Positions 927-48,312 of a stretch of DNA of 62,591 nucleotides are shown in pieces. Origin of the DNA: Chiloscyllium plagiosum (taxonomy: Eukaryota). The translations under genes and the position numbers were made by a program. The stretch is taken from contig NC_057719.1 in NCBI RefSeq assembly GCF_004010195.1, forward strand, positions 88,279,393 to 88,341,983, given 5' to 3'. Each line of letters starts with the position of its first letter. Within the stretch, counting starts at the first letter, position 1. The notes under the pieces are model-generated. The model worked only from the letters and a program-made list of their open reading frames with translations, was not told the DNA's origin and made no database searches.

Positions 927-988
927 CTGGATGTAGGTTTGCTCGCTGAGCTGGAACCTGAGCTACAGATCTGCTCAAAACTCGCTGA
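927..988. mobile_element. 62-bp Penelope-like terminal-repeat fragment with TSD
   Basis: Flanked by direct repeat AGTTAAACTT (917-926, 989-998); insert resembles shark Penelope terminal-repeat sequence as I recall it. Confidence 0.55.
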
Positions 989-1095
989 AGTTAAACTTGT
1001 GGGCCCCACCCCACCGTCTAATGGTGACGATCTGGTGATTTGAAGAGAGATCCAGTGTTAAGGGGAGCTGGTGAGCCTCAGGCCCCACTCAGTAC

Positions 1096-1450
1096 CTGTC
1101 TCTGAAGCCTGCACATCCATCTGCTGGGGCTGGGTAGGCGGCACTGGCTCTATCTTCTTACAAAGACAGGCCCAGGGTCCATTCATCCATATGGCGGAAA
1201 CCGACCGCCAAATATTCCCCCCGCCCCGGTCACTTCCGCTCGGGCCGAGCCCCCTCAGCCGGTGCACCGTCCAATAAAGATCCGGGGCTCCTGCCGTCCG
1301 CTGTCCCCATGGTAACGGGTCAGGTCACCTGATCTGTGGGGTGGGGCCACGCTCGGACCTTTTCTGTCAGCGCGTGAGAGCGGATGTGACCTCATCAGCG
1401 CGCGGCGTGGTGAGTAACGGCCTGAGCGGGAGAACAACGTCACCCGCCTG
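1096..1450. promoter_or_regulatory. CpG-rich promoter of HAUS2, probably bidirectional
   Basis: Only CpG-dense non-coding patch in the window; GC box (ccccgcccc ~1219), ETS CACTTCCG (1231), CCAAT (1271), YY1-like ATGGCGG (1191), X-box-like GTCCCCATGGTAAC (1303-1316); splice donors facing both directions (+ GTG|GTGAGT at 1409/1410; - CAG|GTACTG at 1096/1095). Confidence 0.75.
1360..1409 (+). other. HAUS2: Putative non-coding first exon of HAUS2 (start approximate)
   Basis: Strong donor GTGAGT at 1410-1415 in the CpG patch; matching acceptor tctctctttcag at 2101-2112 just before the ATG exon. Confidence 0.55.
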
Positions 1451-1762
1451 CTCCCCCTCTAAAACCACTGATACCCTTCCCTATTCTCACCACTTCTCCC
1501 CTACCCTTACACCATCTTCACTGACCCTGACACCACCCCGCCGCCCTCCCCAACCACCCCACCACAAAAACTAAACCGTTCCTGCCAGCATACACCACCC
1601 CTTCTCTGCCTCCAATGCTTCATAACTGCCATTACACTTGCCCCAACCTTCTATGAACCACTCAAATTCCCTCTCCACCCCCACCCAGCATTCATTCAAA
1701 ACCACACTGGGCAAAAGTGAGGACTGCAGATGCTGGAAACCAGAGTTTAAATTAGAGTGGTG

Positions 1763-1960
1763 CTGGAAAAGCACAGCAGGTCAGGCAGCATCCGAGGAGC
1801 CGGAAAATCGACGTTTCAGGCAAAAGTCCGCCAACACTGCCCAACCCTCCCCCTGTTTGGACTGGAAAAGCACAGCAGGTCAGGCAGCATCCGAGGAGCC
1901 GGAAAATCGATGTTTCAGGCAAAAGTCCGCCAACACTGCCCAACCCTCCCCCTGTTTGGA
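1763..1960. repeat. 99-bp tandem duplication (2 copies) including part of a Penelope terminal-repeat fragment
   Basis: 1763-1861 and 1862-1960 identical except one substitution. Confidence 0.9.
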
Positions 1961-2129
1961 ACTTGTGCTAATGATCTCACCCTTTGTGTGAGCAAGACAC
2001 TTAAGTTCATACAAGTGCATAATAAAGGGAAATCTTGCTGCAGACACCTTGCAGTGAGTCTCTGACTGTGCTGAACTTTTGAGGTTATTTCTTTCTGCAA
2101 TCTCTCTTTCAGCCTATCTTCAAGTGAGA

Positions 2130-2219
2130 ATGCAGTCTTCAAATCCATGGGAGCCAACAGTTGAAAACCCAGCAGCCCGTTTCCTTGAGAGGTGTATTGG
2201 AAAGGGATTACTGACACAG
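2130..2219 (+). CDS. HAUS2: HAUS augmin-like complex subunit 2, coding exon 1 (MQSSNPWEPTVENPAARFLERCIGKGLLTQ)
   Basis: NPW motif and length resemble the human HAUS2 N-terminus (MAAANPWDP...GMVNQ); acceptor AG 2111-2112, donor GT 2220. Confidence 0.88.
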
Positions 2220-2474
2220 GTATGGCTGGCTAAGCTCGGGACCAGTTTAATGCATCTTGTGCTTTTTAATGCCCATATATTTATTCACTTTCTGTTTTTT
2301 AAAATTAGAATTGATTCCTTGGCCCTACTCATCTATGCAGCTGTCCTTGACTTGAGCCTAGTCGATAACTGGGAAATCTAATCTAAAACTGTCTCTTTGA
2401 TGGATGTTCCATTGCCCCTCTATCTGATGTTTGCTTGCATTGACACCACTTCCACACTCAGGATCACTCAAAGA

Positions 2475-2905: not shown

Positions 2906-2987
2906 TTGGGCTCTGATGATCATTGTAGCAGGCATCCTGCAAAGTCAACCTGGTTGTGATCAGACATTGGACTTCTCATTAGGTCAA

Positions 2988-3186
2988 AAAGTGTGAAGCT
3001 GGAAAAGCTCAGCTAGTCAGGCAGCATCCAGGGAGCAGGAGAGTCAATGTTTCGAACATAAACTCTTCATCGGGAATAAGAAGGGCTTATGCTCGAAACC
3101 TCAACTCTCGCTCTCGGATGTTGCCTGACTGGCTGTGCTTTTACAGCACCACACTTTTTGACTCTGATCTCCAGCATCTGCAGTTA
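2988..3186. mobile_element. Inverted pair of Penelope terminal-repeat (family A) fragments with 12-bp TSD
   Basis: TSD TCATTAGGTCAA at 2976-2987 and 3187-3198; arms are diverged inverted copies; degenerate hammerhead core. Confidence 0.8.
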
Positions 3187-3279: not shown

Positions 3280-4740
3280 ATAGACTACAAAAACAGACCC
3301 TTCAGTTCAACTTGGCCATGCCAACCAATCTGACTTTGTCCCATTTGTCAACCTTTGGCCCATATTCTTCCAAATCCTTTCTAATCATATACTCATCCAG
3401 ATGAGCTCCAGACATATGCGAAAAAGTTGACCCTCAGGTCCTTTTTAAAGCTTTCCCCTCTCACGTTAAATCTGTATCCTCTAGTTTGGGACTTGTGCAC
3501 TCAAGTAAAAAGACCTTGGCTATTCACCCTATCCATGCCCATCATGATCTTATATAAACTCCTATAACTCCTCAGTCTCACTCCAAGGGACAATAACCCC
3601 AGCCTAACAGCCTCTCCTTATAGCTCAAACTCTCCAGTCTTGGCAACATTCTTGTAAATCTTATATGCAACCGCTCAAGTTTAACAACATCCTTTCTCTA
3701 GAAGGGCAACAAGAATTGTGCACAGTATTTCAAAAGTGGCCTCACCAATTCATGTACATTACGGTGGCGCAGTGGTTAGCACTAATGCCTCACAGTGCCA
3801 GGGACCTGTGTTCGATTCCAGCCTTGGGCAATTGTCTGTGTGGAGTTTGCACATTCTCAATGTGTCTGCGTAGGTTTCCTCCGGGTGCTTGTTTTCTCCC
3901 ACAATCCAAAGATGTGCAGGTTAGGTGAATTGGCCATGCTAAATTGCCCATAGTGTTCAGGGATGTGTAGGTTAGGAACATTAGTCCGGGGTACATGTAG
4001 ATTAATAGAGTAGGAGGAATGGATCTGGGTGGGTTACTCTTTGGAAGCTCGGTGTGACTTGTTGGGAGGAATGGGATTCTATGATCTGCAACGTGACATC
4101 CCAATTTCTATACTCAATTTTATGACCAATAAAAGCAAGGATGCCAAACACCACCATCACCACTCTGTCTACCTGTACTTCCACTTTCAATGAACTATGC
4201 ATGTGCACCACGAGGTCTCTTTATTTGCCAACACTCTCCAGGGCCTTACCATTAACTATATGGGTTCTGCCTTGTTTTGCCTTCCAAAGTGCAACACCTC
4301 ACATTTATCTAATAGATGCAAGTAAATCTATTGTAATTGTAGTTAGAAGTTATGCGCTTGTTTCGTTCCCCAAAAACTGACATAGGTTACCTTTTTCTCC
4401 TGTGAAACAGGACACTTTGGATTTAAACAAGGTCCTGCCACACCTCAGCCCGTTGGCCCATCTGACCAAGGTCCTGTTGTATTCTGGGATAACACCTTCA
4501 CTGTCCATTACAGCATCTATTTTGGTTTCATTTGTGAACTTACTAGCCATACCTCCAATATTCACATCCAAACCATGAAAATCAGTGGACCTAAAACTGA
4601 TCGTTGTAGCACACCACTGGTCACAGGGCTCCAGTCTGAAGAGCAACCCTCCACCACACCTTCTGTCTCCTACTTTCAAGCCAATTTTGTATTCAGTTGG
4701 CTAACTCCCTCAGATCCCGTGTGATCTAATCTTACTAAGC
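3280..4740 (-). mobile_element. CR1 LINE 3' part, interrupted by an HE1 SINE and a templated insertion
   Basis: Reverse complement matches the CR1 RT/3' sequence also seen at 61795-62591. Confidence 0.75.
3761..4085 (+). mobile_element. HE1-like tRNA-derived V-SINE
   Basis: Head acggtggcgcagtggttagcact...gttcgattcc (A/B boxes), core ctgtgtggagtttgcacattctc...ggtttcctccgggtgct. Confidence 0.85.
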
Positions 4741-5194
4741 CATATATCATTACTACAGTAGGGATCCTTAGCCATCAGAATTGACTTGCAGAGCCAATTT
4801 TAAGTTTTCTCCTTTCTAGATAAGTTGCCTATGCTGAGTGAAACAAGGTTTCTCACTTGAGTCCTAATCTCTAAAATGATGAAAGGCTTTCCAATAGCTG
4901 ATCTTTTCGTCCTATTCTTGACCCACCACTCCCTTAGTCCTGTCTCCTCTCTCAGCCTATAGACTAAATAGCAGTGCTTAGTGGCATATAAAAGACTTTA
5001 TAAAATAAAAGCTTACCTTCTGATTCCTACTCAGTTCTGTATTGTGAAACGTGATAATTTGTCGTTCTTTCTAACATTATATTTGGAGGCTTTAGAAAGA
5101 TGCACGTAAATCTATTGTAATTGTAGTTAGAAGTTATGCGCTTGTTTCGTTCCCCAGAAACTGATGTAGGTTACCTTTTTCCCCTGTGAAACAG

Positions 5195-5299
5195 GACACT
5201 TTGGATTTAAACAAGGTGGAGTTTGGAAACACAGTGCCATTTGTTGAACGCTTCAGACTAATAGATGAAATTTCACACACCAGGGCAGAACTTGAACAG
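5195..5299 (+). CDS. HAUS2: HAUS2 coding exon 2 (DTLDLNKVEFGNTVPFVERFRLIDEISHTRAELEQ)
   Basis: AG 5193-5194, GT 5300; phase 0-0, 105 bp; aligns with human EMLNMSKK...IQAEIYQ. Confidence 0.88.
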
Positions 5300-6788: not shown

Positions 6789-6874
6789 GTAAGTCTGTGG
6801 TTAATTTTGTGCATGTGAAGTAGTAATGGGAACAGGTAGTTTGCTGGGTGGAGTTGGCATATTGTTTTAAGTAG

Positions 6875-7962
6875 AAATTGAGAACTGTTGATGCTGAAGA
6901 TCAGAGTCGAAAAGTGTGGAGCTTGAAAAGCACAGTAGGTCAGGCAGCATCCAAGGAGCAGAAGAATTGACGTTTCAGGCATAAGTCTTTCTTTAGGTAT
7001 TTTGGGCGGGTGGGGGTGGCTGAAGCTGAGATATAAATAGGAGGGTAGGGTTCCTTACCTTCCACCCCATTAGTCTCCGGAGACAGTGCATCATGCTTTG
7101 CCATTTCTGCAAACTACAATCAGACCACACTGCCAGAGAGATATTTCCATCCCCACCCCTATCAGCATTCCACAGAGACCATTCCTGCTGTGACTCTCCG
7201 TTAAGTTCAAGCTTCCCACCGACCCACCCTCCATTCCCGGCACCTTCCCTTGCTGCCACAAGAGATGTAAAACCTGCGCCCACCTCCTTCACCCCCACCT
7301 CACCTCTAATCAAAGCTCCAAAGCATCATTCCATATCTGGCAGAGATTTTCTAAACACCTCAACTATTGCGTCCATTATTCTCGATGTGATCTCCTCTAC
7401 ATTAGGGAGACAGGATGCCAATTTGCAGAATGTTTCAGGGAACACATCTGGGAGACATGCACCAAACAATCCCAACACCCTGTGTCCTTGGTGGAGTGGG
7501 AGCTTCCCCTCCCACTCCACCAACGATATGTAAGTCTTGAGCCACCTCCACTGCCAAATCCCAGTCAACCAACGACTGGAGGGAGGATACCTCCTCTTCC
7601 ACCTTGGGACCGTTCAACCACATGTAATCAATGTCAACTCTACCAGTTTTCTCATCTCCCCTCCCCCACCTCATCCCAGCTCTAACCCTCCAACTGGACA
7701 CTGCCCTTTTGAACTATCCTACCTGTCCATCTTCTTTTCCACCTATCTGCTCCACCCTCTGCTCCAACCTATCGCCATCACTACCCCCCCCCAAACTGCA
7801 TCTACCTATCGTCTTACCAGCTGTCTCACCCCCATCCCCCTCTTTATCTCTCAGCCCCTGCCCCCATCCCACATTCCTGATGAAGGGTTTATGCCTGAAA
7901 TGTTGATTCTCCTGCTCCTCAGATGCTGCCTGACTTGCTGTGCGTTTTGAGTGCCACACATT
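6875..7962 (+). mobile_element. 5'-truncated Penelope-like retroelement (GIY-YIG end) with inverted 5' terminal repeat and 3' terminal repeat containing a hammerhead motif
   Basis: Frameshifted translation gives EIFPSPPLSAFHRDHS, LLYIRETG-like and LLFHLGTVQPHVINV; 3' repeat with CTGATGA..GAAA at 7877-7900; inverted copy at ~6875-6990. Confidence 0.85.
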
Positions 7963-8168
7963 CTTTTAAGACACTGTAATGGCATGTAGGCCTGACTGGA
8001 GAGGATCTCCTCCCTCTTGGAAATTGGTTGAGATTTTAATGGTACATAATTTTTGTGGTATTTTGTCAACTCTCAAATAACCAGGTTGGTTGAATTATGT
8101 TTCATGACCTGCTCTGAGGGAGTTGAATTCAGATTGCTAATCTCATACTAAACCATGAGTCTACTGTA

Positions 8169-11561: not shown

Positions 11562-13499
11562 TGACTGCTTTTTGGGCTGTGAAATCAGAATTAAGCCATT
11601 CGTTATAAGAATTTTTTTTGAATTTCTAGATTTTAATGTATAAATTTCTTGTGGGTAGTCTTGATAGCAGAAATTAACCAGTGGTTGTGACTGCTTCCTT
11701 TTGTCATTGATTATGGGAAGTATCCAGGTCAACTTTGTGAGTTAAACCACATTGCTGAAACGACTGACTTTACTACCCTCAACATTCACAAGCTAATATG
11801 TCAGCAATGAACCCTTCGTCATTCCCTATGGAAAATAGCAGGCTGGCGCATTTTATTTGGCAGAGCTATGCCTGAGATTGTGCAGGTAGTGACTGCTTTC
11901 TGGGCATCTTTTCCTGGCAACCTTTACTGCTTTGGTACCTCAATCAAGTAAGCAATCTTCATATCAGCCCACACAAGAAATGTCAATAGAGCTGTTACAC
12001 AGGGGCAGCCAAGTCCAATCTTGGCTTTGCCCAGTGTTCTGCCCTGTAGTTTCCAGCAGGAATCACTGAATCGTGATGAGGAGCTGACCCAAGGCTGATG
12101 CTTCCCAGCCTTCCCCAAACAGGAATGAAACCAGGAACCTTCTGTCAGTGGCTTTGCTGCACTAGGGGATGTTATCCCAGGCAAATAGGGGATCGGTAGC
12201 AAGGTGTTATTTGATTCCAAGTGGACACTGCATTTCATCAGGGAAAGCAAGCCCAAAACATACCCAAAGATTAATCTTTTAGTGTTGAGTTGTATTAACT
12301 TATTGAATGTTATGATGTCAATGACCTCGCCTCAAAGGATAACATTTGCACACAATCTTGTGTATTAAAAAATTGGGTACAGTGATGCTTTCTTGTGAAA
12401 ATTTTTTTTAGCATATTGAGCCATTTTTTAAAAAAATTACAAATATAAATTAGCAAACAGTGCACTAACTGTAAGCATATGATCAGTGGAGAGGCCACAA
12501 GAGTCTAGTTTTTGAAATTCTTATCTCTCCAACCTTCTACCAATTACCAGGTTGAAATCAGAAATGTTTCAATATGTACCATTGGCTTGGATAGGTGCAG
12601 TTGCCAACAATACATCTCATTTGGACATATATCACTGTTCCTTTATTGCTGCAAGCAGAATATTGGCAACTTGTGGAAATTTCCAAAAAAAAGGGCCCAA
12701 AGTCATTGAAAAGCAAGGATTGAGGGGAGACTTTCCTGACGTCCACCCAGCTGCACTTGCTTCAGAGTTGAGCCGCGGTTTATAAAAAAAAAATGCAAGG
12801 GAGGACAAGGTGACGTCCAAAATGGTACTGTGTGTGAAGAGAGAAGTAGAGTCGTATTGCACTTGGAACGTTAACTTTCTTTCTCCTTAGATGCTGCCAG
12901 ATCTGAATTGGTCCAGTACTTACTCTTACAGAACAGCATCTTTTGTTCTGAAGCCAGCGGGTACTTTTGCTGCTGTGATATTCCTCAATCCTGTGCCATA
13001 GTTAACTTTTATTGTCTAACTCTCAGGAAAGCTCCTTCAATATTTTAAATTATGCTGCTTGAGATTTGTATTTACAGGAAAACAGAGGCTGTCTTTTGAT
13101 ATGCTCTATTTCCCATCCAGCCATTGCTGCTCAGATTAGTCAACTCATGAATAAAGGCTGTTGTTCAGTAATGGGCCATTGTAGCTAGATTTGTCAGCAG
13201 CTTTTTGGGAATTAGTGTGTTCTGAGATGGAATCAACACTAGCTTTGCAGAGAGCCTAATTACACCTGAGGAAGAAACATTCAGGAAGTAGACAGCAGGC
13301 AAGTGTGGCTTTGTACAGACCTCTGAAGTCTGTGAATGTTAACAACTTCTGGAACCACAAACCAATACTGCAAATGTAGCAGAACAATTGGAGGGATGAC
13401 CCAAAAAAAGTCAACAAAAAATGTTGGAAGCAATAGTTTGATAATTGTGTGGAAAATGCTTTTGACTAGGGTTGCTGTGAATGGACAGAAATACGTAAA

Positions 13500-17443: not shown

Positions 17444-18166
17444 TTATAGCCAGCTGTTATTCTCCTCTTCATATTTCTGTGGGTTGATAAAAGGTTTGTC
17501 TATTGATTTAATTGTCAGTTCTCCACAATAAATGCACTCGGCTGCCACAATATCATCAATGTCAGCTTTGATCTGATCACGGGACTGTTGTCCCTTGTGA
17601 CTGCCCTCTCCTCCTTCCTTTGGCCGCTGCCGGGACTTCACTTGGTTGCTGGTCACCAGCTTTTTCTGCAGCTCCTCCAGCCTGGTCTGCTTGAAAGGGG
17701 AGAGGTGAGGAATCACTTCCTGTAGGAGGCAGTCCGAATGGAACATGTGGCCACACAGGAATAGGTAGAACGGGCGGTTCAGCAGTGGGAAGTCACACGA
17801 GGCGCATTTCTCCTGAGACTCCACCACACCATACTTGTTTCTCATCTCCTGGATATCTTCCCGGATTCGTTTGGCACTCTCTGTCGCCTCCTCCATCTCC
17901 TGCTTGAGCTCGTCGATGTGCTTGTTATACTCCTGCAGGGAGCTGCAGATGGCCTCCTTAAAATGGTCAATGGTCACAAAATCTGGAAAGAAGGGCAGAA
18001 TGTCTTCAATCTTCAGCAGGTTACAGCTGGATAAACAAACCATGGCCTTCTTGACATCCTTCTCCTCTTGGACTACATGACGGGCAATCTTCAGCCACAG
18101 CTTCTTACGAAGCTCCTCATCTTCCTCCGGCATGTCTGCACATGACTTAGCAAGATCTACATCCAT
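17444..18166 (-). CDS. VPS18: VPS18 terminal coding exon (coiled coil plus RING-H2)
   Basis: DVDLAKSCADMPEEDEELRKKLWLKIARHVV...CASCDFPLLNRPFYLFLCGHMFHSDC...ECIYCGEL...SWL*, highly similar to human VPS18; acceptor AG at 18168-18167. Confidence 0.98.
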   Translation of the reverse strand: MDVDLAKSCADMPEEDEELRKKLWLKIARHVVQEEKDVKKAMVCLSSCNLLKIEDILPFFPDFVTIDHFKEAICSSLQEYNKHIDELKQEMEEATESAKRIREDIQEMRNKYGVVESQEKCASCDFPLLNRPFYLFLCGHMFHSDCLLQEVIPHLSPFKQTRLEELQKKLVTSNQVKSRQRPKEGGEGSHKGQQSRDQIKADIDDIVAAECIYCGELTIKSIDKPFINPQKYEEENNSWL

Positions 18167-18289
18167 CTGTTTTTATAAAGACATTCAACAGTCATAAGGA
18201 GAACAGAGACAGAACATTCATGCCCAGAAGGGCCAACTGCTATTCAAATGCTTTAGACCACAAGGATACTGTCCATCTACCTGTGGACT

Positions 18290-18762
18290 AGAATCATAGA
18301 ATCTGTACTGAAAGAGGCCATTTGGCCCATCAAGTACACACCAAACCTCCACAAAGAGCGTCTCACCCAGACCCACCCTACTCTTGCATTTTCCCAAGTC
18401 TATTCCACCTAGCCTGCACTATGGGTAATTTAGCACAGCCAATCCACCTAACTTGTACATCTTTGGACTAGGGGAGGAAACTCTCAGACACTGAGAATGT
18501 GCAAAGTCCACACAGACAGACAGTCACCTAAGGGTGGAATCAAACCCAGATCCCTGCCACTGAAACAGCAGTGCTAACCACTGTCGATATAGTGTGTTGC
18601 TGGAAAAGCACAGCAGGTCAGGCAGCATGAGGAGCAACAGAGTCGACATTTCCAGCTTAACCTTTCATCAAGGCTCCACCTCAATATCTTCAGATTCCCT
18701 GCCCCCCACAACTTCATCAGAGAACCTTTCAACTAGTGCTAACCACTGAGCCACCATGCCCC
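18290..18762 (-). mobile_element. HE1-like SINE carrying a nested Penelope terminal-repeat insertion (18584-18734)
   Basis: 14-bp TSD AGTGCTAACCACTG at 18570-18583 and 18735-18748 inside the SINE head. Confidence 0.8.
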
Positions 18763-20026: not shown

Positions 20027-20140
20027 CATTCCTGATGGAAGGCTTTTGTGTGAAATGTCGATTCTCCTGCTCCTCAGATGCTGCCTGACCTGCTGTGCTT
20101 TTCCAACACCACACTCTTGACTCTAATCTCACTTTTGCCT
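20027..20140 (+). mobile_element. Family A Penelope terminal-repeat monomer inserted in a CR1 fragment, degenerate hammerhead
   Basis: TSD ATCTCTCCT (20018-20026, 20141-20149); begins cattcCTGATGG...GAAAtGTC. Confidence 0.75.
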
Positions 20141-27165: not shown

Positions 27166-27989
27166 GTATTGTAAAAAAAAATGTTGTCAAAGCTTTTCTT
27201 CTTGTGCTCATCAGCACAATTATCAGGAAATGAATGCATGAGAGGAAAGTGCTGAATGGTTGATTTGGTTCCTGGAGACAGTACCTTGAAGAATACACCA
27301 GCTAGTGAATTGACAGTTAACAGCCAGGCTTTGTTAAATTTTAAACCAGACAGATTGACTCTGGTTGGGGCATTGCCCCAAGAGGTGAACCAGAGAATGG
27401 CTGTTACCCATTTTGTTGAATTGAAACGGGCCCCAGTGCGCACACATGTTCTTTCTGTCTGAAAAGAAAGTGTATTCATGTTATGTAGCTTCAAATACTT
27501 GCAATTGTGTCACACTGAGACCAAGTTTCAGAATCCTAAATTGTTTGTCAGTGTAATACTTCACACGCTCAGGACTTTTGCAGCAAATGTTGTCTAATTG
27601 CAGAATCACAGCTAATGTTTGACGTAGAGTCATAGAAGGTCCAACTCATCCATGCTGACCAGATATCCTAAATTAATCTAGTCCCATTTACCAGCATTTG
27701 GCCTATATCCCTCTAAACCCTTCCTATTCATAGAGTCATTGAGATGTACACCACAGAAACAGATCTTTCGGCCCAACACAACCATGCCAACCAGGTTTCC
27801 TCAACTAAACTAGTTTGATTTGCCTGCATTTGCTCCATATCACTTTAAACCTTTCCTATCCACGTACCTGTCCAAGGTCTTTTAATGTTATAATTGTACC
27901 TGCCTCTGGCAGCTCATTCCATACATAACTAGAGACAAAAACAAGCTGAAATAATTACTAAATTGCACAATAATTAAACACAATAAGGA

Positions 27990-28118
27990 GGAGCAAATTA
28001 CTGCAGATACTGGAATCGGTACTGAAAACAACAAATGCTGGAGATCACAGTTGGTCAGACAGAATCCATGGAGAGAGAGCAAGCTAACGTTTCAAGTCTA
28101 GTTGACTCTTCATCGGAG
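27990..28118 (-). mobile_element. Family C Penelope terminal-repeat fragment with near-intact hammerhead
   Basis: Minus strand gct CCGATGA a gagtc aacta gactt GAAA c GTT agc (one core substitution). Confidence 0.65.
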
Positions 28119-29242
28119 CATCATTAAACCAACAAGTTTGATTATATCTTTTACAATCAGTTTTATAATATAAACATCAAATCACACTGACCTTTGCCCT
28201 ATTACTGAAATAACATTAAGAAATATATACTCAGGGAATGAAATTACATATAATAAAATTAAATTATTACAGATATACTTTTTCAATTCTTGATCTGAAG
28301 GTGCTGGCTTTGATTATTGGTCAGGTTTCACACTACTCACCACTCAGTACCTTGCCCAAGTGGTCATTCTTGGGAACAGATTTTACACAACCATCTCCAA
28401 TATAGAAATGATAACTAAAAAAATCCTTTGTGGTTGTACCCATCCAGATGCCTTTTAAAATAGCCTCTACCATTTCCTCTGGCGGCTCAATCCATACATG
28501 CAGATATGGTGTTATAAGGTTCCCAAGCACTGAGTAGTTGGGCATGATCAGTGCCTTGCCTGTTGTGAACAACCGATGGGATATGTTATTTCATACAATC
28601 CGCCAGTTTTGTACAAATCCCACATCAAATCAGTACTGAATTCATATATCACATTATTTGTTTGTTTGATAGGCAGAACATCTTTTTGACTTGACAGTAG
28701 CATTCCTTTAGTGGCAGAGACCATTGGTGGTACTACTTTATAGCAGAGTGATACCCTATCCTTCTGGGGTAATCTGAGGTAGACTGGGCACTTTTCAGGA
28801 CCAACAGTCGCCATGTTTAAGTTCTGTTCATGAGTTTACCAAATACACTGCAAGTAATAATCTGATCAGGATAGCCATTATCGCACCCTATTTTAGCATC
28901 AAGTTTGCACAGTGAAAAAAATAACTCCGGCCCTATTTACAAAGTTTCCAAGATGACCAAGATGTGGAACAGTAAGAATCCCAATGTATATACTGACCAG
29001 TGAAGGTAGTTTTGTAGTAGGCAGTCATACAGAGCTCTCCTGGCCGATTTCTCAACTAGGTAATTGAAGATAGGGAGCTTATTTGACTGTTGCATTTCAG
29101 ATGTGAATTTTAGTGTCCAATGGTGCCCCTTAAAATATATAAAGAAATTCTGACATGCAGCTGCAGACTCAAATATAGCAAAACTATCATCTATATCTCA
29201 GAAATATGCAAGGAATAAGAGGTTAGGTGTCATTCCATTGAA

Positions 29243-29462
29243 GTAAAAACAATGACTGCAGATGCTGGAAACCAGATTCTGGATCAGTGGTGCTGGAAGA
29301 GCACAGCAATTCAGGCAGCATCCGAGGACAGACAAAATCGACGTTTCGGGCAAAAGCCCTTCATCAGGAATAAAGGTGAAGGGCTTTTGCCCGAAACGTC
29401 GATTTTGCCTGTCCTCGGATGCTGCCTGAATTGCTGTGCTCTTCCAGCACCACTGATCCAGA
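29243..29462. mobile_element. Young 220-bp palindromic family A insertion with 14-bp TSD and an intact hammerhead core on the - strand
   Basis: TSD GTCATTCCATTGAA (29229-29242, 29463-29476); 86-bp inverted arms 29278-29363 and 29377-29462 with one mismatch. Confidence 0.92.
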
Positions 29463-31196: not shown

Positions 31197-31516
31197 CTAA
31201 AGAAGAAGCAACAGAATTAATTCATCTTTATGTCCCATCATGGAGACCCGTACCCCAGTTAACAGTCACAGGGAAGCGGTATGAAACAGAATAAGATAAG
31301 GAAAATATTATCTCTAGGCTTTCACAACCTTTGGATGTCCCAAATCCTTTCCAAGAAATTAAGGACTTTGGAGCATCCTGCTGAAGGGTGTGGGAGAGCC
31401 AATTTGCGAATAGAAACTTCCACAGCCTGGAATGAAAGCTGTGTTGAAATATCTGATTCATTGGTGTTGGTCAAGGGACAAATGTCAGAGAGGAGTTGCC
31501 TACTGTTTTCCAATTA

Positions 31517-32587: not shown

Positions 32588-32785
<198 letters not shown>

Positions 32786-33237
32786 TTAGTTTGGGCACAT
32801 TGTTGTAACAAAACATCAGGTAGCAGTGCAGTAGTGGAATGATGGGTTTCCAACCATTCTTAAAAATCATGCTATGGAGATGCAGTTAACACTTCATCCA
32901 GTTACAATAGAACCTTGACTAGATGGGCCGATGAGCCGAGGAAAAGCAGATGAAATTTAATTTAGATAAATGTGAGGTGTCGCTTTTGGTAAGGCAAATC
33001 AGGGCTGGACTTGTACACTTAATGGCAGGGTCCTGGGAGTGTTACTGAACAAAGAGACCTTGGGGTGCAGGTTCATAGCTCCTTGAAGGTGGAGTCAAAA
33101 GTAGACAGGGTAGTGAAGAAGACCTTAAGTACACTTCCTTAAATGATCAGGATTTGGAGATGCCGATGTTGGACTGGGGTGTACAAAGTTAAAAATCACA
33201 CAACACCAGGTTATAGTCCAACAGGTTTAATTGGAAG

Positions 33238-33276
33238 CACACTAGCTTTCAGAGCGACGCTCCTTCATCAGGTGAT
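33238..33276 (-). ncRNA. Minimal type-I hammerhead ribozyme motif (family B), within insertion ~33153-33297
   Basis: Minus strand cac CTGATGA a GGAGC gtc GCTCT GAAA g CTA gtg: stem I cac/gtg, stem II, palindromic AGCT stem III. Confidence 0.7.
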
Positions 33277-33782
33277 TGTTTATCAGGTGATAGTGGACTA
33301 TCAGTGCATTGAGTATAGGAGTTGGGATGTCATGCTATGGCTGGACAGGACATTGGTTAAGCCACTTTTGGAATACTGTATTCAATTCTGGTCTTCCTGC
33401 TAATAGAAAAGATGTTAAACTTGAAAAGGTGCAAAAAAGATTTACAAAGATGTTGGCAGGGTTGAGGGTTTGAGCTATCAGGAGAAGCTCAACAGACTAG
33501 GCGTATTTTCCCTGGAGTGTTGGAGGCTGAGGGGTGACCTTATAGGTGATTATAAAATCGTTAGGGCTTGGTTAGGGTGAATAGTCAAGATCTTTTTCCC
33601 AGGGTAGGGGTGTCCAAAACTAGAGGGCATAGGTTCATGGTGAGAGGGAAAGATTTAAAAGGGACCTGAGGTGCAATATTTTCATGCAAAGGGTGGTACG
33701 TGTACGGAATGAGCTGCCAGAGGAAGTGGTGGAGCCTGGTACAATATATTTAAAAGGTATCTGAATGGGTACATGAATAGGA

Positions 33783-33905
33783 GAAAGTGAGGATTGCAGA
33801 TGCTGGAGACCAGAGTTGAAAAATGTGGTGCTGGAAAAACACAGCAGGCCAGGCAGCATCCGAGGAGCAGGAGAATTGACGTTTCGGGCATAAGCCCTTC
33901 TTCAG
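33783..33905 (-). mobile_element. Family A monomer with intact hammerhead core and ~20-bp TSD
   Basis: TSD GAATGGGTACAT(G/C)AATAGGA at 33763-33782 and 33906-33925; minus strand CTGAAGA a GGGC ttat GCCC GAAA c GTC. Confidence 0.85.
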
Positions 33906-35204
33906 GAATGGGTACATCAATAGGAAGGGTTTGCAGGGATTTGGGACAACTGCTGGCAAATGGGACTCGATTAACTTAGTATATATGGTCGGCATGGACA
34001 ATGGAATGAAGGGTCTGTTTCTGTGCTATACATCTCTATGGCTCTATGAATTTACTGTCATGCAGGTGCAGCGATAGAACAGGAGTTTTAACATACAGAG
34101 AAAGACCATTCAAACCATACACCTCCACCAGCTGTTTGAAAGAGCTATCCAATTATCTACTCTCCCTGCATTTTTCCACTCTTGAGCTATGACTTAGTAT
34201 GTCTTGTATGTAAGGCATTATGAAATGGATAAGCTTGTGAATGAAAATGGAATAAAAGGTTCTGCTGATAGGATTTGGGGAAGAGAGCTGTGAATCAGGC
34301 CCTTCGGCCCAACTCATTGCTGACCAGGTTTCCTAAACTGACCTTTCCCATATGCCAGCATTTGGCTCTTATCCACGTACCGCCCAAATGTCTTTTAAAT
34401 GTTGCAATTGTACATAACTATACTGCTTCCTCTGGCAGCTCTTTCCATATAAGCACAGTCTTGTTAACATCCTTGTCAATCTTTTTTGCACTCTTTCCAG
34501 TTTAATAACATCACATGGAGCATAAACACCAACATTAAACGTTTGAGGCAGAATGCCTGTTTTCTTGTGATGTAATGACCAAGCAGCCTATTATGGTATG
34601 ATTTATCCTTTTGTTCTGTCTTCTGGATGAATGTACCCTTCCCAACGCTTTAGAGTTTTGAGGCCTTATGTTAGAAGATTCCTGGCAAACTCTGACTATA
34701 GTGCACCCTATCTCTTTAACAACCTCTTCCGTATTCAGGAAAGCATAACACCTTGGGTTTCCATGCTGGACTTCCCTGAGGGAATCTAGGACTGGGAAGC
34801 ACAATTTCAGAATAATATCTAAGAATTTATCCCATTCTCTTTGTAAAGTTGCTATTGTTAGGGCTTCCACAACTCTTTTATGTTATGCATTCAAGACTTC
34901 TATATTCATCTAAACAATGTTAAAATGATTTTGGTAATTTATGGAGAGCTTAGAGAGGAGCAACAGTCAGCTTGAGTCAGAGGCTAGATTTAAGATGGAA
35001 ATGAGAGGCTTCTTCTTTTAATGGGTTTTAGAGTCTCAGACCTTGACTGTAGTAGAGGCCAGGTTATTGTATATATTCAAAGTTGAGTTCAATAGATCTT
35101 TGACCAACAAGAGAGCAGGACAATTCGAGAAGGGTGGATTGTTAGTGCTGTTGGGAAGAGTTCAAACTACTTTGGCAGGGGAATTGGAAGCAAGATGTAT
35201 TTTA

Positions 35205-35530: not shown

Positions 35531-35566
35531 AAAAGAAGTTGCGAGAATGATTAGGAGAGATAACAT

Positions 35567-35683
35567 GGAGGTGCCAGTGTTAGACTCGAGTGGACCAAGT
35601 TGAAAATCACACAACGCCAGGTCAGAGTCCAACAGTTTATTTGAACCTACAAGCTTTCAGAGCACTGCTCCTTCATCAGGTGG
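35567..35683 (-). mobile_element. Family B terminal-repeat monomer with hammerhead core
   Basis: Minus strand ac CTGATGA a GGAGCA g TGCTCT GAAA g CTT gt; homologous to 33153-33276. Confidence 0.75.
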
Positions 35684-36090: not shown

Positions 36091-36173
36091 TAACTTGGAG
36101 GTGCCGGTTTTGGACTGGGGTGCTTCCAAATAAACCTGTTGGACTATAACCTGGTGTTGTGTGATTTTTAATT
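36091..36173. mobile_element. 83-bp family B insertion with inverted segment and 13-bp TSD
   Basis: TSD TTATCCTAATATA at 36078-36090 and 36174-36186. Confidence 0.8.
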
Positions 36174-36779
36174 TTATCCTAATATAGAATGGGATGGTAA
36201 AAGTGTAAAGAATTGAGAGGAGGACTAGTCTATAAAATAGAAACAATATGGAACTACAACGTATCAGGTTTTATAAACAGTTAGACTTTAATTGCCTCTT
36301 GAATTTCAAGCTAAAATGGAGTTTGACTACTAGAGGACAGTTAATCAGTGTTGCTACTAGGACAGGGTGAAGTGTAATTGTGGATGGGAGTTTTGGCCAT
36401 TTTAAAAGTTAAATGAGGGACATTTTCTGTGATCTAAACTACATGTTACCTACGAAAATAGTCAATGCTGTGTTTAGTTTATTTGTTACATTAAAATCTT
36501 AAAACTTGAAATCATATGTAATCCTTTAAGCCAGTCACTGGAAGTTCAAATCCCTTTGTAAACATCATCAGTCTCTATAGAGATTATAACAAGCTAGAGT
36601 ATGAGAAGAAACTGGCAGCTAAATGAAAAGGGAATCCAAAAGTCTTCTACAGGCATATAAATAGCAAAAAAAGTAGCAAGATGAGAAGTGGGCTTTATTA
36701 GGACACAAAAAAGATGGATCTACACAAAGAAGCAGAGGGTATGGCTGAGGTTCTAAATGAATAAACTGAAGAACTACAA

Positions 36780-37275
36780 CTTTCCAGCAGATTTCAGAAA
36801 CAAAAACAGAAATTGCAGGAAAAATGCTCATCCTATTTTTTGCTTGGGAACCCTACAGTCTTTAGGACTCAATGTCAAGTTCAATAATTTTAGGGTCAGA
36901 GCACCTTCTTCCTTGTCCTTAGCGCAACCAGTGTACACCAGGCCTTGTCATCACATGGGCTGTTATCACAAACAAACCCATTTTCAGGTACTAAAGGTCT
37001 CCATTAGTAGCTCGCGATTCTTCTAGGCTGACTATTACCCATTCCTTTGTCTGCTAAACTATTGTTCTCTCCCTCTCTTTCTACCACTACCTATAGTTTA
37101 CTTCTCTTCCCTAACCCCCTACCCTCACCCCAGCTTCAGCATACATTACCAACCTTTTCCCAGCTACAATCAGCTGTAAAGAAGAATCACTGAACCTGAA
37201 ACGTTAACTCTGCTTTCTCTCCACAAATGCTGCCAGACCTGCTGAGTTTTTCCAGCAATTTCTGACTTTGTTTCT
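36780..37275 (+). mobile_element. Old Penelope-like 3' fragment with decayed terminal repeat
   Basis: IFCLGTLQSLGLNVKFNNFR resembles the PLE ORF C-terminus; tail ctgaaacgttaactctgctttctctccacaaatgctgccagacctgctgag. Confidence 0.65.
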
Positions 37276-38363: not shown

Positions 38364-40602
38364 GCATATGTGATTTTGGGATTTGTAACTAGGGTGAAAA
38401 CCAAGAGATTATGATAACCTTTATTAAACACATCTTCAGCTTCAACTGAATTAGTAAGTCCAATTCTAAACACCACACTTTAGGAAGAAACTAAACCCTT
38501 TAGAGAGGATATGAAAAGATTTATAGGAATGGTTCTACAGATGAAGGCTTAGATTTAATGTGGATATATTACAGAAGCTGGGGTTTATCTTCTTAAAAAT
38601 TAGAATATTGGGAAAAGATATAAGAGTGATCAAAACCAAAACCATAAGGAATCAATACAGAGTAGGTCTAGAGAAAGTTTGCCTATTAGAGGAGGATTTG
38701 GGAATCAGAAGATATTGACAAAACTGTCAGAGTTTTATGAGCCCTCTGGTAGTTGGGAACATGGCAAGCAGGAATGGGGTATCATGAATGATGCCTTCCT
38801 ACTGCCATTTTGCCAACTGTTGGCAGATTAGTTGCCAAATGTCCAATTGAGTCACTTAAGTAATCATTTCAGGGCCACTTCCTGCCTCTGCAGGCATCCT
38901 ACTAACATCACAGACAAACACATTCTAGAGAAATCCAACACATATGTGGATAGACAAACAGAGTTAACATTTCGAGTCCAGTGTGACTTCTTCAGAAGTG
39001 AAAGACATTAGAAAATGCTTATTTAATACTTCTGACAGAAATAAAGGTGGGGCGAAGGGAACAGAAGGCGTAGAGGCCCAATGCAACAGACAAAAGATTG
39101 TTAATGTTGGTTTAAAAAAAGGATATAAAATGAGTGTATAATAAGATACGGACAGGAAAGAAAGGGCCTTTTCTACTGAGGGAAATCTGTAGATCTACCA
39201 TTTAATGCTTTACTTGTTGTAAAGCCTATAATCTTTTATTTCTAATTTTTTGATTGTGGACTGAAATCAGAAAAGTACTGTTTTAAAGACAAGGATTATT
39301 GTAGATTTACTGCACTTTCTAAAAGCAAGTTACCAGACATTCATTGTGAGTGCTGTTTACACAGTTGCTTGTTCAAGCGAAGGTGGAAAGCCTGGTTCCA
39401 GATGAACTGGAGCCAGAGGCTGTGTACAAATGGAGATTTTCCTGACAACAGGATTGGTCAGTGAAATAGTGACTAGTCATCAATAACAAAGACTCCCTGC
39501 CCGAACCAACTATGAGATTGACTCCTAAATAGCTGAATAGGTTGGGGATGTAAATGTTCAGGGGCTATCTGGAAGAGAAGGAACCATGTTTTTGCTCTGC
39601 AGTAAAAAGTATCTCCTGCCTGAAGACAGCCAGTTCGTTTCCCCTAATCAGTTGCTGCAAGCTGTGATTTTTTAAATTAATAAATCAGAGACTTTTATAA
39701 GTGTGTACCAGTCACCTTCAGCATTCTGAAAACAAGTGAAATTACCTACAGGAGGAAGATTGAGAAGCAGCATTCTGAACAGTAAAAGGATCATCTCAGA
39801 AAAACCCATGTGTACTAGGGCCAGTGAACTGCCTTCCCAGTCTTCGTGTGTGTGTGTGTTGGTTATTTAACCAGTAAGTTATATGTTAATGGTTTATAAT
39901 TGTTTACCTATGGTTAGAAAGCATTATTTTGTATTAAATTGTAATTTTTATTAAGGATAGAAACCTAGTTTATGGTTTCTGTCAATCTGGGACAAAAAGA
40001 CAGGTAAGTTGGGAAATTCTGCAGACTTTTAAACACCAAGAATAGTAAGACTTGATTTCAGTACTTTTGAAAGTCTGTACTGCTGGAATTTTTATTAATT
40101 TATTTTTGAGTTTTTAACCTAAACATTTGTACTCAATCTATACATAGGTACCTTTGTGTCTAAGGTGACACCATAAGTGGTGACTTATAAACTTTTCACA
40201 GTAGTCATGTGAGTATACGTGACAATAAAGCTAATTGAATTCAATGTCCAATGAATTACCAGCTCCTTTTGCTTTGGACTATCATTCCTCTTGTTATTTA
40301 ATCTCTCCTGCCTTCTTTCCCTTATAGACTTCTCTTTTGGTTCCTCCCTTGTCTCATTTCCCACTTGCTTGCATTTGTTTAAAGCCTGTTATATCTCCAA
40401 CATGTCCTAATTCTGATCAGTCATTGCTGACCTGAAATATTAAATCTCTCTTTCTCCAAGGGTACCGCCCGACCTGTTGAGTATTTGCAACATCTTCTGC
40501 TATTAGTGAGTGAAGACGCTGCAGTTTTTCTCAGGTAATGTAAGATGTAAATGTTGACTAGTTTCCCCAAACTAGGTTAATACAAAAGTTCTTTAAACTT
40601 AC

Positions 40603-42379: not shown

Positions 42380-42544
42380 TCAGGCAGCATCCAAGGAGCA
42401 GGAGAATCGATGTTTCGAGCATAAGCCCTTGTCCAAAACGTCGATTCGCCTGATCCTCAGATGTTGCCTGATGTGCTGTGCTTTTGCAGCACCATACTCT
42501 TGACTCTGATTTCCAGCATCTGCAGTCCTCACTTTCTACTAGGT
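42380..42544. mobile_element. Family A inverted-pair insertion within a LINE fragment, 11-bp TSD
   Basis: TSD GTACTTGTATG at 42369-42379 and 42545-42555. Confidence 0.8.
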
Positions 42545-43353: not shown

Positions 43354-43485
43354 TCGATTCCTGAAGAAGGGCCTGTGCCCGAAACGTCGAATCTCCTGTT
43401 CCCTGGATGCTGCCTGACCTGCTGTGCTGTTCCAGCAATAAAGTTTCAACTTTGATCTCCAGCATCTGCAGACCTCACTTTCTCC
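43354..43485 (+). mobile_element. 132-bp family A monomer with 13-bp TSD
   Basis: TSD TCCGATCAGCTAT at 43341-43353 and 43486-43498. Confidence 0.9.
43356..43393 (+). ncRNA. Minimal type-I hammerhead ribozyme motif (best copy)
   Basis: GATTC CTGAAGA a GGGC ctgt GCCC GAAA C GTC GAATC: perfect 5-bp stem I, 4-bp stem II, palindromic ACGT stem III, GUC cleavage triplet. Confidence 0.8.
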
Positions 43486-45096: not shown

Positions 45097-45350
45097 CAGT
45101 GTGCTGGTATTCTGTACTTACGGCAGTCCCTGTCTCAGCAGTGAGCTTTTATCCTGTACTGCCAGCAGTCCTTGTCCCATCAGTGTGCTGGTATCCTGAA
45201 CTGACAGTAGTGCCTGTCCCAGCAGGGTGCTGGTATCTGTACTGACAGCAGTCCCTATCCCAGCAATGAGCTGGTATCTAGTTCTGACAACAATCTGTGT
45301 CCTAGCAGTGTGCTGGTATCCTGTACTGATGGTGCTCCCTGTCCTAGCAG
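45097..45350. repeat. Minisatellite, ~42-bp unit x6 (cagtgtgctggtatcctgtactgacagcagtccctgtcccag)
   Basis: Units start at 45097, 45139, 45181, 45223, 45264 and 45306. Confidence 0.9.
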
Positions 45351-46021
45351 TTTTGTTGCTGGTGATTTGTTTGAACTGTTAGACAGGCTGGATTTATTGC
45401 AATTCTTTGCTGCTGTTACTCATTGTGCTATCTGGTTGTTTTAATATTTACTTTGTTCAAAAAATGTTCAGAAACATCCTGGCCTCAATGTAATCTATTT
45501 CTGAATATCTAGTTTTATCCCCAGTGCTGAATGGGAATGATGTCACTGGGTATAGAACGAAACTGTCCCTGAACATTCTGACTTGGGAAGATTGATATTG
45601 GGATTGGATACCTTTGTAACTCTGTCACAACACAACTTAGTCTATCCTCAATTTCTCTGGGTTAATGAATCATCACCTGACTGCAGTCACAGCTGTTATA
45701 ATCGAAATTCTACAGAATGATCCTTGAGCAAGAGTGTTATTTTAATTCTGGGTATTTATGTAAAGTGCAGTGTAGAAGGTGAAGCGTTTATGGCAAGAAG
45801 GTGCTAGCCAAATTCTACTTCCCAGCTCTTTGTCTTAGCACTGTAGGTTAAAGCACCTCCAACTGTACATCCAATGATGATTGCCCCTACTGCCCTTTCA
45901 AATAATGAGTTGTAGACCTCCTCCAGTTTCAGTGTAATAGCATTTCTATTCAACTCTCTTTCAATCCTCTGGCCTTACTTTAATTTTGTGACCCTTTGTA
46001 TTGACCTCTTTGCTAAAGGAA

Positions 46022-46239
46022 ATATGTCCTTTCTACCCACTCCACCTCAGCCTTTTGTAAGTTAATAAGTGCCCATGACCTAGGCACTTATTAACTTACA
46101 AAAGGCTGAGGTGGAATGGATAGAAAGGACATATAATTATCAAGGTATTATCTATCTCTTTGCCACCTCTTTCAACACTCTGCATCCCAGAGTGTTGAAA
46201 GAGGTGGCAAAGAGATAGGTTATACCTTGATAATTATAT
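46022..46239. repeat. Two abutting inverted repeats, each with 52-bp arms
   Basis: 46022-46073/46083-46134 and 46131-46182/46188-46239, two mismatches each. Confidence 0.92.
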
Positions 46240-47744
46240 CCCAAAATTCCAGTTTCTGGAATGATTCCACGGTAGATTGCAAGTACCGCCCCATTACTTA
46301 AGAAAGGAACAAGAGAAAAAAGAATCCTGAAACAGTAGGGAAAAATCCTAGAATTTTTGATAAAGGACATGACAAATGGACACTTGGATACAAATGATCT
46401 GATTGAGCATAGTAAGTACAGATTTGTGAATGGAAAATCATTTTCAACAAAACTGTTGGACTTTATTTGAGGATATTGCTGAAACATTGAGAGTGAAGAG
46501 TTAATGGCTGTAGTATATTTAGATTTTGTAGGCTTTTGATAAGGTCCCCACCAAGAGTTTGGGTGACAAGATTAACCCACATGGGATAGGAGGTGCAATA
46601 CTGGCATGGATTAAGGATTGACTAACAGATCCTGGACTTGCAGTGCAGAGGAGAGAGCAGGCTCAGCTGTTCAAGATGTTGGCACTGGCATGGTATGCCT
46701 GTAAGACTATAAAGTCCAGTGAAACTCTGTAACCCGTTGGAGTGATTTGGGACCATTCATTCAAGTTGGTCTCTCTCTCTCCCCATGCTATATATGAAAT
46801 AAACGTGTCAGTACTCAAGGTCTTTGTACGAGATTTATTCAAAAGATTTTCTCCAACAATGCCCATCCGTGGGGTTTTGTTTTCTCTCCTTTTTTTGTCT
46901 TTTTAACCTTTTTCTTCTGTACTTCCTGACATCACGTGGCTACCTCAACGGTTTGGTGATGACTGGAGTGGAGCCTCCTGGCTTCATAGGACTGATGTGT
47001 GGACTCCGTGAATCAGCGGCCAGGCTGCTGTGATGGTGGAACAGGGACTCCTGGCTCTGGTAGTCCGAAAGCAAGGACCTTGCAGAGACCTTGCATAGGT
47101 CCTGGAGCCATGTTTGGGACCTCAACTAATGAAGATAAGCTCTATTTAAGTATCTTTTTATTCTTTTAGACCTCAAAATTGCACCGGATTGTGGTGACAG
47201 AACACTCTCACTGTATCTACCTAGACATATGTGAAAATAAATCATTCATTCACTAAGGTAGAAAACTGTGTAGGAATAAATGCTTTCTGCAGTGCTACAG
47301 TGGCTTCCCAGTATTTTCTTTGTGAGTTTTTTCCTCATGTGGTGTGAATAGACAAGAATGGTGTACATAGTTGCCTTCCCTGTGTGCTCAAAGATGTGCT
47401 AAACATGGAATCATACCGTCATTGAGGAGAATAGGCTGATGTGACTCCAGGATACTAAAACTGCTCAAAGGTCATGCAGCACCATTTTCCTTAATTAGTC
47501 TTAAACAATACAAAGCGAGATTGGCAGTAGTCTGCAGCTTACTGTAACAGTATGTCACAACAGAATAATTTAACATGCTTGTGCTAAGACAATGTTTCTG
47601 GAGGCAGTATGGTGTTTTGTTGGCACAATTTTGAGGCTTTTGCTCATGAAGGGGAAGCAGAAAATAACATTCCCTTGCATATGTATGAGATTTGTCACTG
47701 CTGTGCCACTTGGTATGGTGCATTGGCTAGACATGATGAGGGAC

Positions 47745-48046
47745 TAGATTAGATTAGATTACTTACAGTGTGGAAACAGGCCCTTCGGCCCAACAAGTCC
47801 ACACCGACCCGCCGAAGCGCAACCCACCCATACCCCTACCTTTACCCCTTTAACCTATCACTACGGGCAATTTAGCATGGCCAATTCACCTGACCCGCAC
47901 ATCTTTGGACTGTGGGAGGAAACCGGAGCACCCGGAGGAAACCCACGCAGACACGGGGAGAATGTGCAAACTCCACACAGTCAGTCGCCTGAGTCGGGAA
48001 TTGAACCCGGGTCTACAGGCGCTGTGAGGCAGCAGTGCTAACCACT
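47745..48046 (-). mobile_element. Young HE1-like V-SINE (CpGs retained)
   Basis: (TAGAT)n tail, V-core, B-box; many intact CpGs. Confidence 0.9.
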
Positions 48047-48159
48047 GGGTGACGAGAAGGTGATTTTTCCATAAAGGGCCTGACCCACGAAGGATATTCC
48101 AGAAGCACCACTCTGACTTGGCCCAAGTCAGGAGCCTGTAGAGACTGTTTCACAAAGGA

Positions 48160-48312
48160 TTTGGAGGTGCCGGTTTTGGACTGGGTGGACAAAGTTAAAA
48201 ATCACACAACATCAAGTGGTTGTTGTGTGATGAAGAAGCAGCTTTTCGAAAGGTAGCGCTTCCAAATAAACCTGTTGCACTATAACCTGGTGTTGTTTGA
48301 TTTTTTTTTAAC
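48160..48312. mobile_element. Family B inverted-pair insertion with 12-bp TSD, decayed hammerhead
   Basis: TSD TTTCAC(A/G)AAGGA at 48148-48159 and 48313-48324. Confidence 0.7.

Follow-up and report, generated by a model that had tools for sequence, protein, structure and literature searches.

The 62,591 nucleotides of Chiloscyllium plagiosum DNA analysed here (the window; NC_057719.1, forward-strand positions 88,279,393 to 88,341,983, numbered below from its first base) carry numerous short non-coding inserts. These are copies of the end module of Penelope-like elements (PLEs), some 125–130 bases comprising a minimal hammerhead motif and a tail of 35–40 bases, inserted singly or paired head to head. 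They are probably end stubs of an element class already described, and not a novel family driven by a ribozyme; the parts are known, and the gain is in mechanistic detail, not a new class. At a probability of about 0.62, we favour an origin of the modules by internal reverse transcription on uncut RNA, with run-off at the 5′ end of that RNA, likely a transcription start at stem I of the hammerhead.

The first-pass annotation of this DNA had named ten insertions with flanking repeats of 9–20 bp, and all ten are indeed bounded by such repeats (insert sizes 62–220 bp). With the borders chosen by eye before scoring, each reaches a target-site duplication (TSD) score of at least 9, as do 1.4% of 292 random 130-bp intervals. 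The high density it reported, one unit per 5–6 kb, is real, but the figure is too low. Profile searches of the window returned 22 matches to the A/E/F group of families and six to family B at E < 0.003 (one extra B match, E = 0.35, was left out) and, on the reversed window, none; we count about 23 end-module insertions in the 62 kb, totalling 2883 bp or 4.7%. Module-only insertions are abundant, as had been claimed, but five of the ten named inserts are clear head-to-head pairs, so that solo units are in the minority, and those at 927 and 18584 may be pairs too. Module coordinates take the C of the CUGANGA box as +1; in family A the predicted cut falls after +28. The family A insertions are as follows.

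43354..43485, plus strand (132 bp): solo module, −4 to +125 with three extra 5′ bases, intact core, 5-bp stem I; 13-bp TSD (43341-43353/43486-43498).
33783..33909, minus strand (127 bp): solo module, −4 to +123, boxes intact, stem I broken; TSD of 16–20 bp with one mismatch, its end overlapping the first four bases of the element.
20027..20140, plus strand (114 bp): solo module that begins at −5, has lost 17 bp internally and has a decayed core; set antisense within the final VPS18 intron, with a 9-bp TSD.
29243..29462, both strands (220 bp): head-to-head pair, minus arm −4 to +125 with intact core, 5-base linker, plus arm +5 to +90; 14-bp TSD.
2988..3186, both strands (199 bp): head-to-head pair of a minus arm covering −4 to +86 and a plus arm covering +4 to about +115, the cores decayed; 12-bp TSD.
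42380..42544, both strands (165 bp): head-to-head pair, with a minus arm over +7 to +57 and a plus arm over +17 to about +130; 11-bp TSD.
18584..18734, minus strand (151 bp): arm +1 to about +90 with a 63-bp piece; 14-bp TSD.
1710..1960, minus strand: arm spanning +10 to about +128; a 99-bp tandem duplication (1763-1960) arose locally afterwards; no convincing TSD.
6872..7959, plus strand: coding insertion with an inverted module at 6872-7000 (−4 to +125), a 5′-truncated body, 3′ untranslated region (UTR) and hammerhead; 11-bp TSD with one mismatch.

The link to Penelope comes from this last insertion and from one of family E.

36763..37271, plus strand: coding family E insertion made up of a piece of inverted tail, the final codons of a Penelope open reading frame (ORF; 36820-36894), 3′ UTR and a decayed module (37172-37271); 12-bp TSD with one mismatch.

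The two coding insertions have their outer layout in common, which in 6872..7959 reads TSD, inverted module, truncated body, module, TSD. The body of the latter (7030-7650) holds a zinc-finger linker and a decayed GIY-YIG region, and its terminal hammerhead has the core at 7877 in a module that stops at +83. The inverted arm of the coding insertions is the same module as that found alone: 6872-7000 spans the same extent as the solo copy at 43354 (−4 to +125) and nearly that of the one at 33783 (−4 to +123). A separate mobile family is therefore unnecessary.

The Penelope fragment with GIY-YIG homology, ended by the family A repeat, had been recognized in the first-pass annotation and is borne out. 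Translation of 7194-7499 gives a Cys-rich linker and decayed GIY-YIG region with which a HMMER search found 142 proteins at E ≤ 1e-3. GIY-YIG is present in seven of the eight matched proteins scanned, five of six full-length matches (813–907 residues) score for RVT_1, five of the six for GIY-YIG, and the Cys cluster precedes the GIY-YIG region in the homologs as well. The fragment itself has no Pfam GIY-YIG match (only DUF3795, below cut-off), and a word-index protein search with the GIY-YIG fragment gave 0 of 29 candidates. Since a zinc-finger-like linker before the endonuclease defines Neptune/Nematis (PMC8557442), the predicted linker points to an element of this type. In family E only the last codons are present (36820-36894, tblastn E = 2.7e-5). 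No reverse transcriptase piece was found in the window by tblastn, and both coding copies are truncated. The Penelope origin proposed earlier for the modules is thus demonstrated for family A, partly for E and by anatomy alone for B; this demonstration does not extend to the insert at 927 or to the motif at 27.2 kb. Two further tblastn matches were dropped as chance, one at 24057-24248, inside a VPS18 exon, and one at 14127-14303 (E = 0.001); a 22-base family A pattern found five loci in metagenomes, all of them chance matches in unrelated DNA.

By its form the shared motif is a minimal type I hammerhead with a predicted self-cleaving role. The CUGANGA and GAAA boxes, the UH, an extra base before stem II and a palindromic, loop-less stem III are present, in agreement with the earlier description and across families. 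The boxes are kept while the stems differ and still pair: stem II is GGGC/GCCC in A, GGAGC/GCTCT in B and GAGTC/GACTT in F, and stem I is variously ATTC/GAAT, CAC/GTG or GCT/AGC. As the stems change with pairing kept and the boxes are constant, the motif is a true minimal hammerhead in form. A strict scan of the window found two perfect palindromic motifs, against none in 20 shuffles. The division into four families survives for A (ACGT stem III), the related E and F (ACGT) and B (AGCT), with several copies each, but the motif at 27.2 kb is one decayed copy. The remaining insertions are listed below.

35561..35682, minus strand: family B solo module from −3 (the first stem I base), full tail, intact core, AGCT stem III; weak 7-bp TSD.
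33151..33299, minus strand: family B module with 25–28 extra upstream bases, full tail, intact core; 5-bp TSD, at chance level.
48160..48312, both strands (153 bp): family B head-to-head pair; the minus arm consists of the 3′ half and the tail, the plus arm begins at +2 and has no tail, and the core is decayed; 12-bp TSD with one mismatch.
36091..36173, both strands (83 bp): family B inversion without overlap, an inverted tail of about 32 bp joined to a piece that starts near the predicted cut site and extends as far as the short 3′ site; 13-bp TSD.
27980..28122, minus strand: solo module of family F (related to A/E) from −6, full tail, one core change; TSD of 7–10 bp.
12843..12941, plus strand: old E-type module from the profile search.
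25429-25527 (plus), 38912-38999 (minus), 40423-40502 (plus), 55788-55899 (plus) and 61716-61789 (minus): old E-type copies from the profile search.
927..988, strand unassigned: 62-bp insert with an exact 10-bp TSD and no hammerhead; no second copy or relative anywhere in the window.
27184..27220, minus strand: hammerhead-like motif, a single decayed copy with both boxes, AAGCTT stem III and a 4-bp stem I; neither stem II nor TSD.

The earlier statement that many of the inserts carry hammerhead cores is not borne out as worded. The core (CUGANGA..GAAA-NN-UH) is intact in three of the ten named inserts (29243, 33783 and 43354) and in five of 15 bounded inserts examined; it is decayed in 2988, 18584, 20027 and 48160, the CUGANGA box is missing from 42380, and there is no core in 927 and 36091. 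Stem I is weak in most family A copies (2 bp, a U-U mismatch, 1 bp), reaching the full 5 bp in one of seven family A arms, and is 3 bp long in B and F, against the 4–5 bp that characterize the minimal type. The hammerhead family search proposed with the first-pass annotation found none: an Rfam scan of the window at E up to 5 gave 18 matches, with no hammerhead family among them. Minimum-energy dimers predicted by RNAcofold have no cross-strand stem III pairing in A, B, E or F, a result that concerns predicted pairing and not activity. Across 12 of the 14 family A arms (the duplicate and a near-identical second arm were left out), 8 of 112 core letters are changed compared with 97 of 865 downstream (p = 0.25), and no clear protection of the core emerges. 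The copies differ by 7–20% from the family majority. This pattern fits selection in source elements followed by decay in inserted copies.

Two smaller features of the module may be added. Nested stems are predicted downstream of the hammerhead in 43354-43485; the short 3′ end site falls immediately past the inner hairpin, in AC-rich sequence. An ATG-started frame, a putative ORF start, is common to the module region of families A and E.

The ends of the modules are not spread continuously. In six of nine family A events an arm begins at −4 or −5; the remaining three start at +1, +7 and +10 (p ~2e-4 against a uniform 30-base null). The clustering recurs at the same place in public contigs (see below) and upholds the discrete units of the first-pass annotation in this respect. 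The 3′ ends of family A fall at +123 to +131 (seven arms) or +83 to +91 (four arms), with two elsewhere (+57 and +115), the duplicated arm at 1862 being left out of the tally. The two groups lie 35–40 bases apart, a gap that agrees with a tail of 30–40 bp and with the two starts of reverse transcription seen in vitro.

The sequence at the start is TCATTC or ACATTC in family A and TCAGTT in E (the majority of three old copies), with A at −4 in both. The Initiator consensus, TCAKTY/YYANWYY, is matched by the A and E starts with its +1 A at −4. The two patterns occur at 0.17% (TCAKTY) and 1.3% (YYANWYY) of window positions. The TC of the start motif lies outside the stem I pairing, and four of the six clustered ends have a non-native letter at −5, stopping exactly at the A.

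Seven inserts are clearly two-armed, and in six of them (2988, 6872, 36091, 36763, 42380 and 48160; not 29243) each arm holds sequence that is missing from the other. These arms are therefore not fold-back copies, and both require an RNA template. The plainest case is 36091, where the inverted tail is joined, without overlap, to the piece that precedes the tail.

Two public contig sets and one informative RNA run were aligned to positions 7300-7990 of the window; a second RNA run gave no aligned reads. In the contig sets (34,226 and 44,635 contigs aligned), the best-supported 5′ loose ends are in both cases 7872, 7873 and 7874, which account for 1205 of 6837 (18%) and 1559 of 9896 (16%) of the partly aligned contigs. 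The flanks at these ends are mixed, with an agreement of 0.31–0.34 that is near random. This pile-up of contig ends lies 31–33 bases 5′ of the predicted cut, where stem I begins; the predicted cut site at 7905 is not among the three best-supported 5′ loose ends. Module depth in the contigs is 61–70 times that of the median body bin and 2–5 times that of the highest, and RNA reads number 913–1270 over the module against a body maximum of 32 (median 5), at least 28 times the highest body bin, all of these ratios being inflated by the presence of two arms per insertion and by related families. The RNA reads fall on both strands, with mixed flanks.

Among the joints listed, the best supported is a minor opposite-strand class, 7872/7905 (five and seven contigs), with 7905 directly following the predicted cut. 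In 36091 the plus arm (36120) may likewise start at the predicted cut site. Together these hint that cut RNA sometimes serves as the second template, a possible trace of cleavage in vivo.

The anatomy of the module, its TSDs, its link to coding bodies and the clustering of its 5′ and 3′ ends are features of the DNA itself; nicking of both target strands by a protein and priming at two sites would be needed to produce them in the scheme that we propose. RNA would start at stem I of the hammerhead, from an Initiator-like site at −4. The element protein would nick both strands of the target, prime inside the uncut RNA about 125 bases from its 5′ end and run off the RNA start. Priming at the end of the tail would yield a solo unit, and a second priming 35–40 bases further in would yield the inverted arm, which would be short in the hairpin inserts and reach the coding body in the long ones. 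Ribozyme cleavage would be unnecessary for most insertions, and the inserted copies would decay afterwards.

Parts of this scheme have precedents. Penelope of Drosophila has an internal promoter (PMC2377424), and Initiator-like sequences occur in the pseudo-long terminal repeats (pLTRs) of rotifer elements (PMC3846280). For the Anolis protein, two internal starts of reverse transcription bracket the tail, both target strands are extended and uncut RNA is the main substrate in vitro (PMC11167929). From the Initiator-like start, the internal promoter of Penelope and the clustered 5′ ends we infer an RNA start at −4 and run-off after about 125 bases. A bolder version we regard as improbable: the first strand of stem I would also serve as Initiator for an internal promoter, and a module of 125–130 bases would unite start site, ribozyme and start of reverse transcription and act as a minimal self-propagating RNA polymerase II mini-retroelement in sharks; its fixed ends would read out the Penelope cycle, and run-off with a second priming would account for solo pLTRs, inverted pLTRs and the tail. 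The downstream promoter element fits poorly at +28 to +32 (three of five letters in A).

Several points weigh against run-off at a transcription start. The one informative RNA run (a polyA single-cell library, 2% of the run) has no pile-up of RNA starts or ends, and only one of the six clustered ends is preceded by the additional G that a cap would leave. The starts in family B (−3 and about −26) and the motifs of F and of the 27.2-kb copy are not Initiator-like, and the T at −6 in family A rests on a low-agreement consensus of loose ends and one copy that overlaps its TSD. The alignment reference is a decayed copy in which 7780-7850 aligns poorly, so that body depth is underestimated; some of the loose ends at 7872 may come from longer copies whose alignment was clipped at that point, and the pile-up was read from the three best-supported of a longer list of loose ends. 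The pair at 29243, whose arms have one difference in 80 positions and 12 non-majority letters in common, fits fold-back copying equally well. No full-length source element is among the copies in the window. The 5′ end does not derive from a splice acceptor, given that no AG lies closer than about 20 bases upstream and that the flanks of the loose ends are mixed.

The sharp 5′ end at an Initiator-like site would also be expected if the solo module were a self-standing element resembling a short interspersed element (SINE), with an internal promoter and a protein-binding site, re-copied in trans by the Penelope protein. The excess of module over body in RNA reads and contigs is in keeping with such an element, rotifer pLTRs act in trans (PMC3846280) and non-autonomous Chlamys elements exist (PMC8557442). 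We nevertheless consider it unlikely: an identical unit arises inside coding insertions, the copies lie 7–20% from the family majority and bear no sign of core protection, and RNA reads on both strands with mixed flanks are what passive host transcripts would give. A SINE-like element and run-off from uncut RNA yield the same products and are not mutually exclusive. An ordinary hot spot of 5′ truncation, at which reverse transcription from the 3′ repeat stops at the C-rich start of the 3′ UTR or microhomology joins the copy at ATTC, seems to us less likely still. The native upstream sequence is indeed a C/T-rich tract, two of three solo family A copies (33783 and 20027) have a possible target microhomology of 3–4 bases, the Anolis enzyme prefers ATT (PMC11167929) and heavy 5′ truncation is general in Penelope-like elements (PMC8557442). 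Against a hot spot, four of the six clustered ends break off at the A itself, preceded by a non-native letter at −5, and inverted arms, which are joined to element sequence and not to target, end at that base too; a stop caused by structure would be expected 3′ of the hammerhead, not beyond it.

The first-pass annotation had called the units retrozyme-like and ribozyme-defined. As retrozymes they would be monomers or circles cut by the ribozyme, reverse-transcribed and inserted. They are non-coding, hammerhead-bearing and flanked by TSDs, a preprint links animal retrozymes to Penelope pLTRs, some of them in one cartilaginous fish (Li, 2026; bioRxiv 10.64898/2026.07.22.740005), and the joint 7872/7905 (five and seven contigs) and the possible start of the 36091 plus arm at the cut site would fit such a route. 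The name is nonetheless not supported and the route very improbable. Permutation is absent and the units begin 32 bases ahead of the cut site; some inserts have no ribozyme, the core has no clear protection and none of the seven Tandem Repeats Finder rows in the window is a tandem array with a hammerhead. A cut solo unit would be expected to lose the ribozyme without means to rebuild it, and the motifs are minimal, not of the canonical type that defines non-LTR (long terminal repeat) retrozymes (PMC7229834). The 99-bp tandem at 1763-1960 was considered as a retrozyme dimer and rejected, since it includes flanking sequence and has no CUGANGA box.

Comparison with described systems places the inserts among endonuclease-containing (EN+) PLEs. 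Most minimal hammerheads were reported in 2014 as single and 'probably related to truncated PLEs', with pairs on opposite strands 100–700 bp apart and thousands per genome in coelacanth and Xenopus (Cervera & de la Peña, 2014; PMC4209133). The motifs here resemble those of metazoan PLE pLTRs in their type I core, extra base before stem II and palindromic, loop-less stem III, but stem II is shorter (4–5 bp) and stem I is weak in most family A copies; neither sharks nor clustered 5′ ends are mentioned in the relevant part of that report. The EN+ Penelope-like insertions of Arkhipova (2013; PMC3846280) and Craig (2021; PMC8557442) share with the present ones a head-to-head inverted end, a one-sided tail of 30–40 bp, TSDs (theirs of 8–10 bp), a high degree of 5′ truncation, solo pLTRs and Initiator-like pLTR sequences. 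We find in the window the corresponding C-terminal GIY-YIG linked to the end module, the zinc-finger linker, and the inverted 5′ end copy with one-sided tail and TSD. The differences are that the body is usually absent here and that solo units have TSDs of their own, where rotifer solos often lack them; the overlaps of the arms, moreover, are better explained by two primings than by self-priming, the mechanism put forward in 2013 (PMC3846280).

Poseidon PAc of Anolis (Frangieh, 2024; PMC11167929) is similar in having a hammerhead about 110–125 bases upstream of the start of reverse transcription and two starts bracketing the tail. PAc cuts and extends both target strands and does not need cleavage, as in the scheme proposed for the inserts here. 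The present elements differ in having the zinc-finger linker of Neptune/Nematis, and the relevant part of that report is silent on run-off at the 5′ end of the RNA. Animal non-LTR retrozymes (Cervera, 2020; PMC7229834; Li, 2026) are likewise non-coding, hammerhead-bearing and related to Penelope pLTRs, and dispersed monomers occur, but their defining features are tandem arrays in which every unit carries a ribozyme, and circular RNAs. Within the window we find no tandem hammerhead repeats, no unit bounded by the cut site and no canonical type I hammerhead in monomers of 150–450 bp, the units being minimal motifs in modules of about 125 bp. A search of the literature on sharks, with Repbase and Dfam outside it, gave no description of such stubs beyond a Penelope listing in whale shark and one cartilaginous fish in the preprint.

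How the inverted ends and tails of Penelope are assembled is not yet settled (PMC8557442; PMC11167929). End modules that make up about 5% of the window amount to a large natural record of start and stop points, and run-off with two primings can be tested by counting them. For annotation they hold a warning: such stubs have the look of retrozymes, of small hairpin transposons or of microRNA precursors and are in fact Penelope ends. The insert at 29243 scores against mir-722, mir-2007 and mir-373, in each case below the cut-off.

The 63-bp piece of the 18584 insert (18672-18734) has a weak inverted match to the Penelope 3′ UTR, with a score reached by seven of 200 shuffles, and a 19-bp match at 38700-38718. 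This insert and that at 20027 lie in the intron between the last two exons of VPS18 (17444-18172 and 22344-24200, minus strand), which are 91% identical to shark homologs. For one exon, protein identity is 91% with catshark and white shark, 84% with skate and no more than 76% with bony fish, as expected of shark DNA. On the same strand, upstream of the VPS18 exons, 30742-31221 is an exon, apparently the last, of a lysine methyltransferase (Methyltransf_16). Some 200 bases from the insert at 927, positions 1200-1450 are rich in GC and CpG and resemble a promoter island. A sequence of about 120 bases occurs at both 4313-4434 and 5053-5216, the two copies lying about 790 bases apart. A tandem array of a 42-bp unit (about six copies, 76% matches) occupies 45097-45351, and 46003-46230 contains two adjoining long, near-perfect hairpins, against which several microRNA models score far below cut-off.

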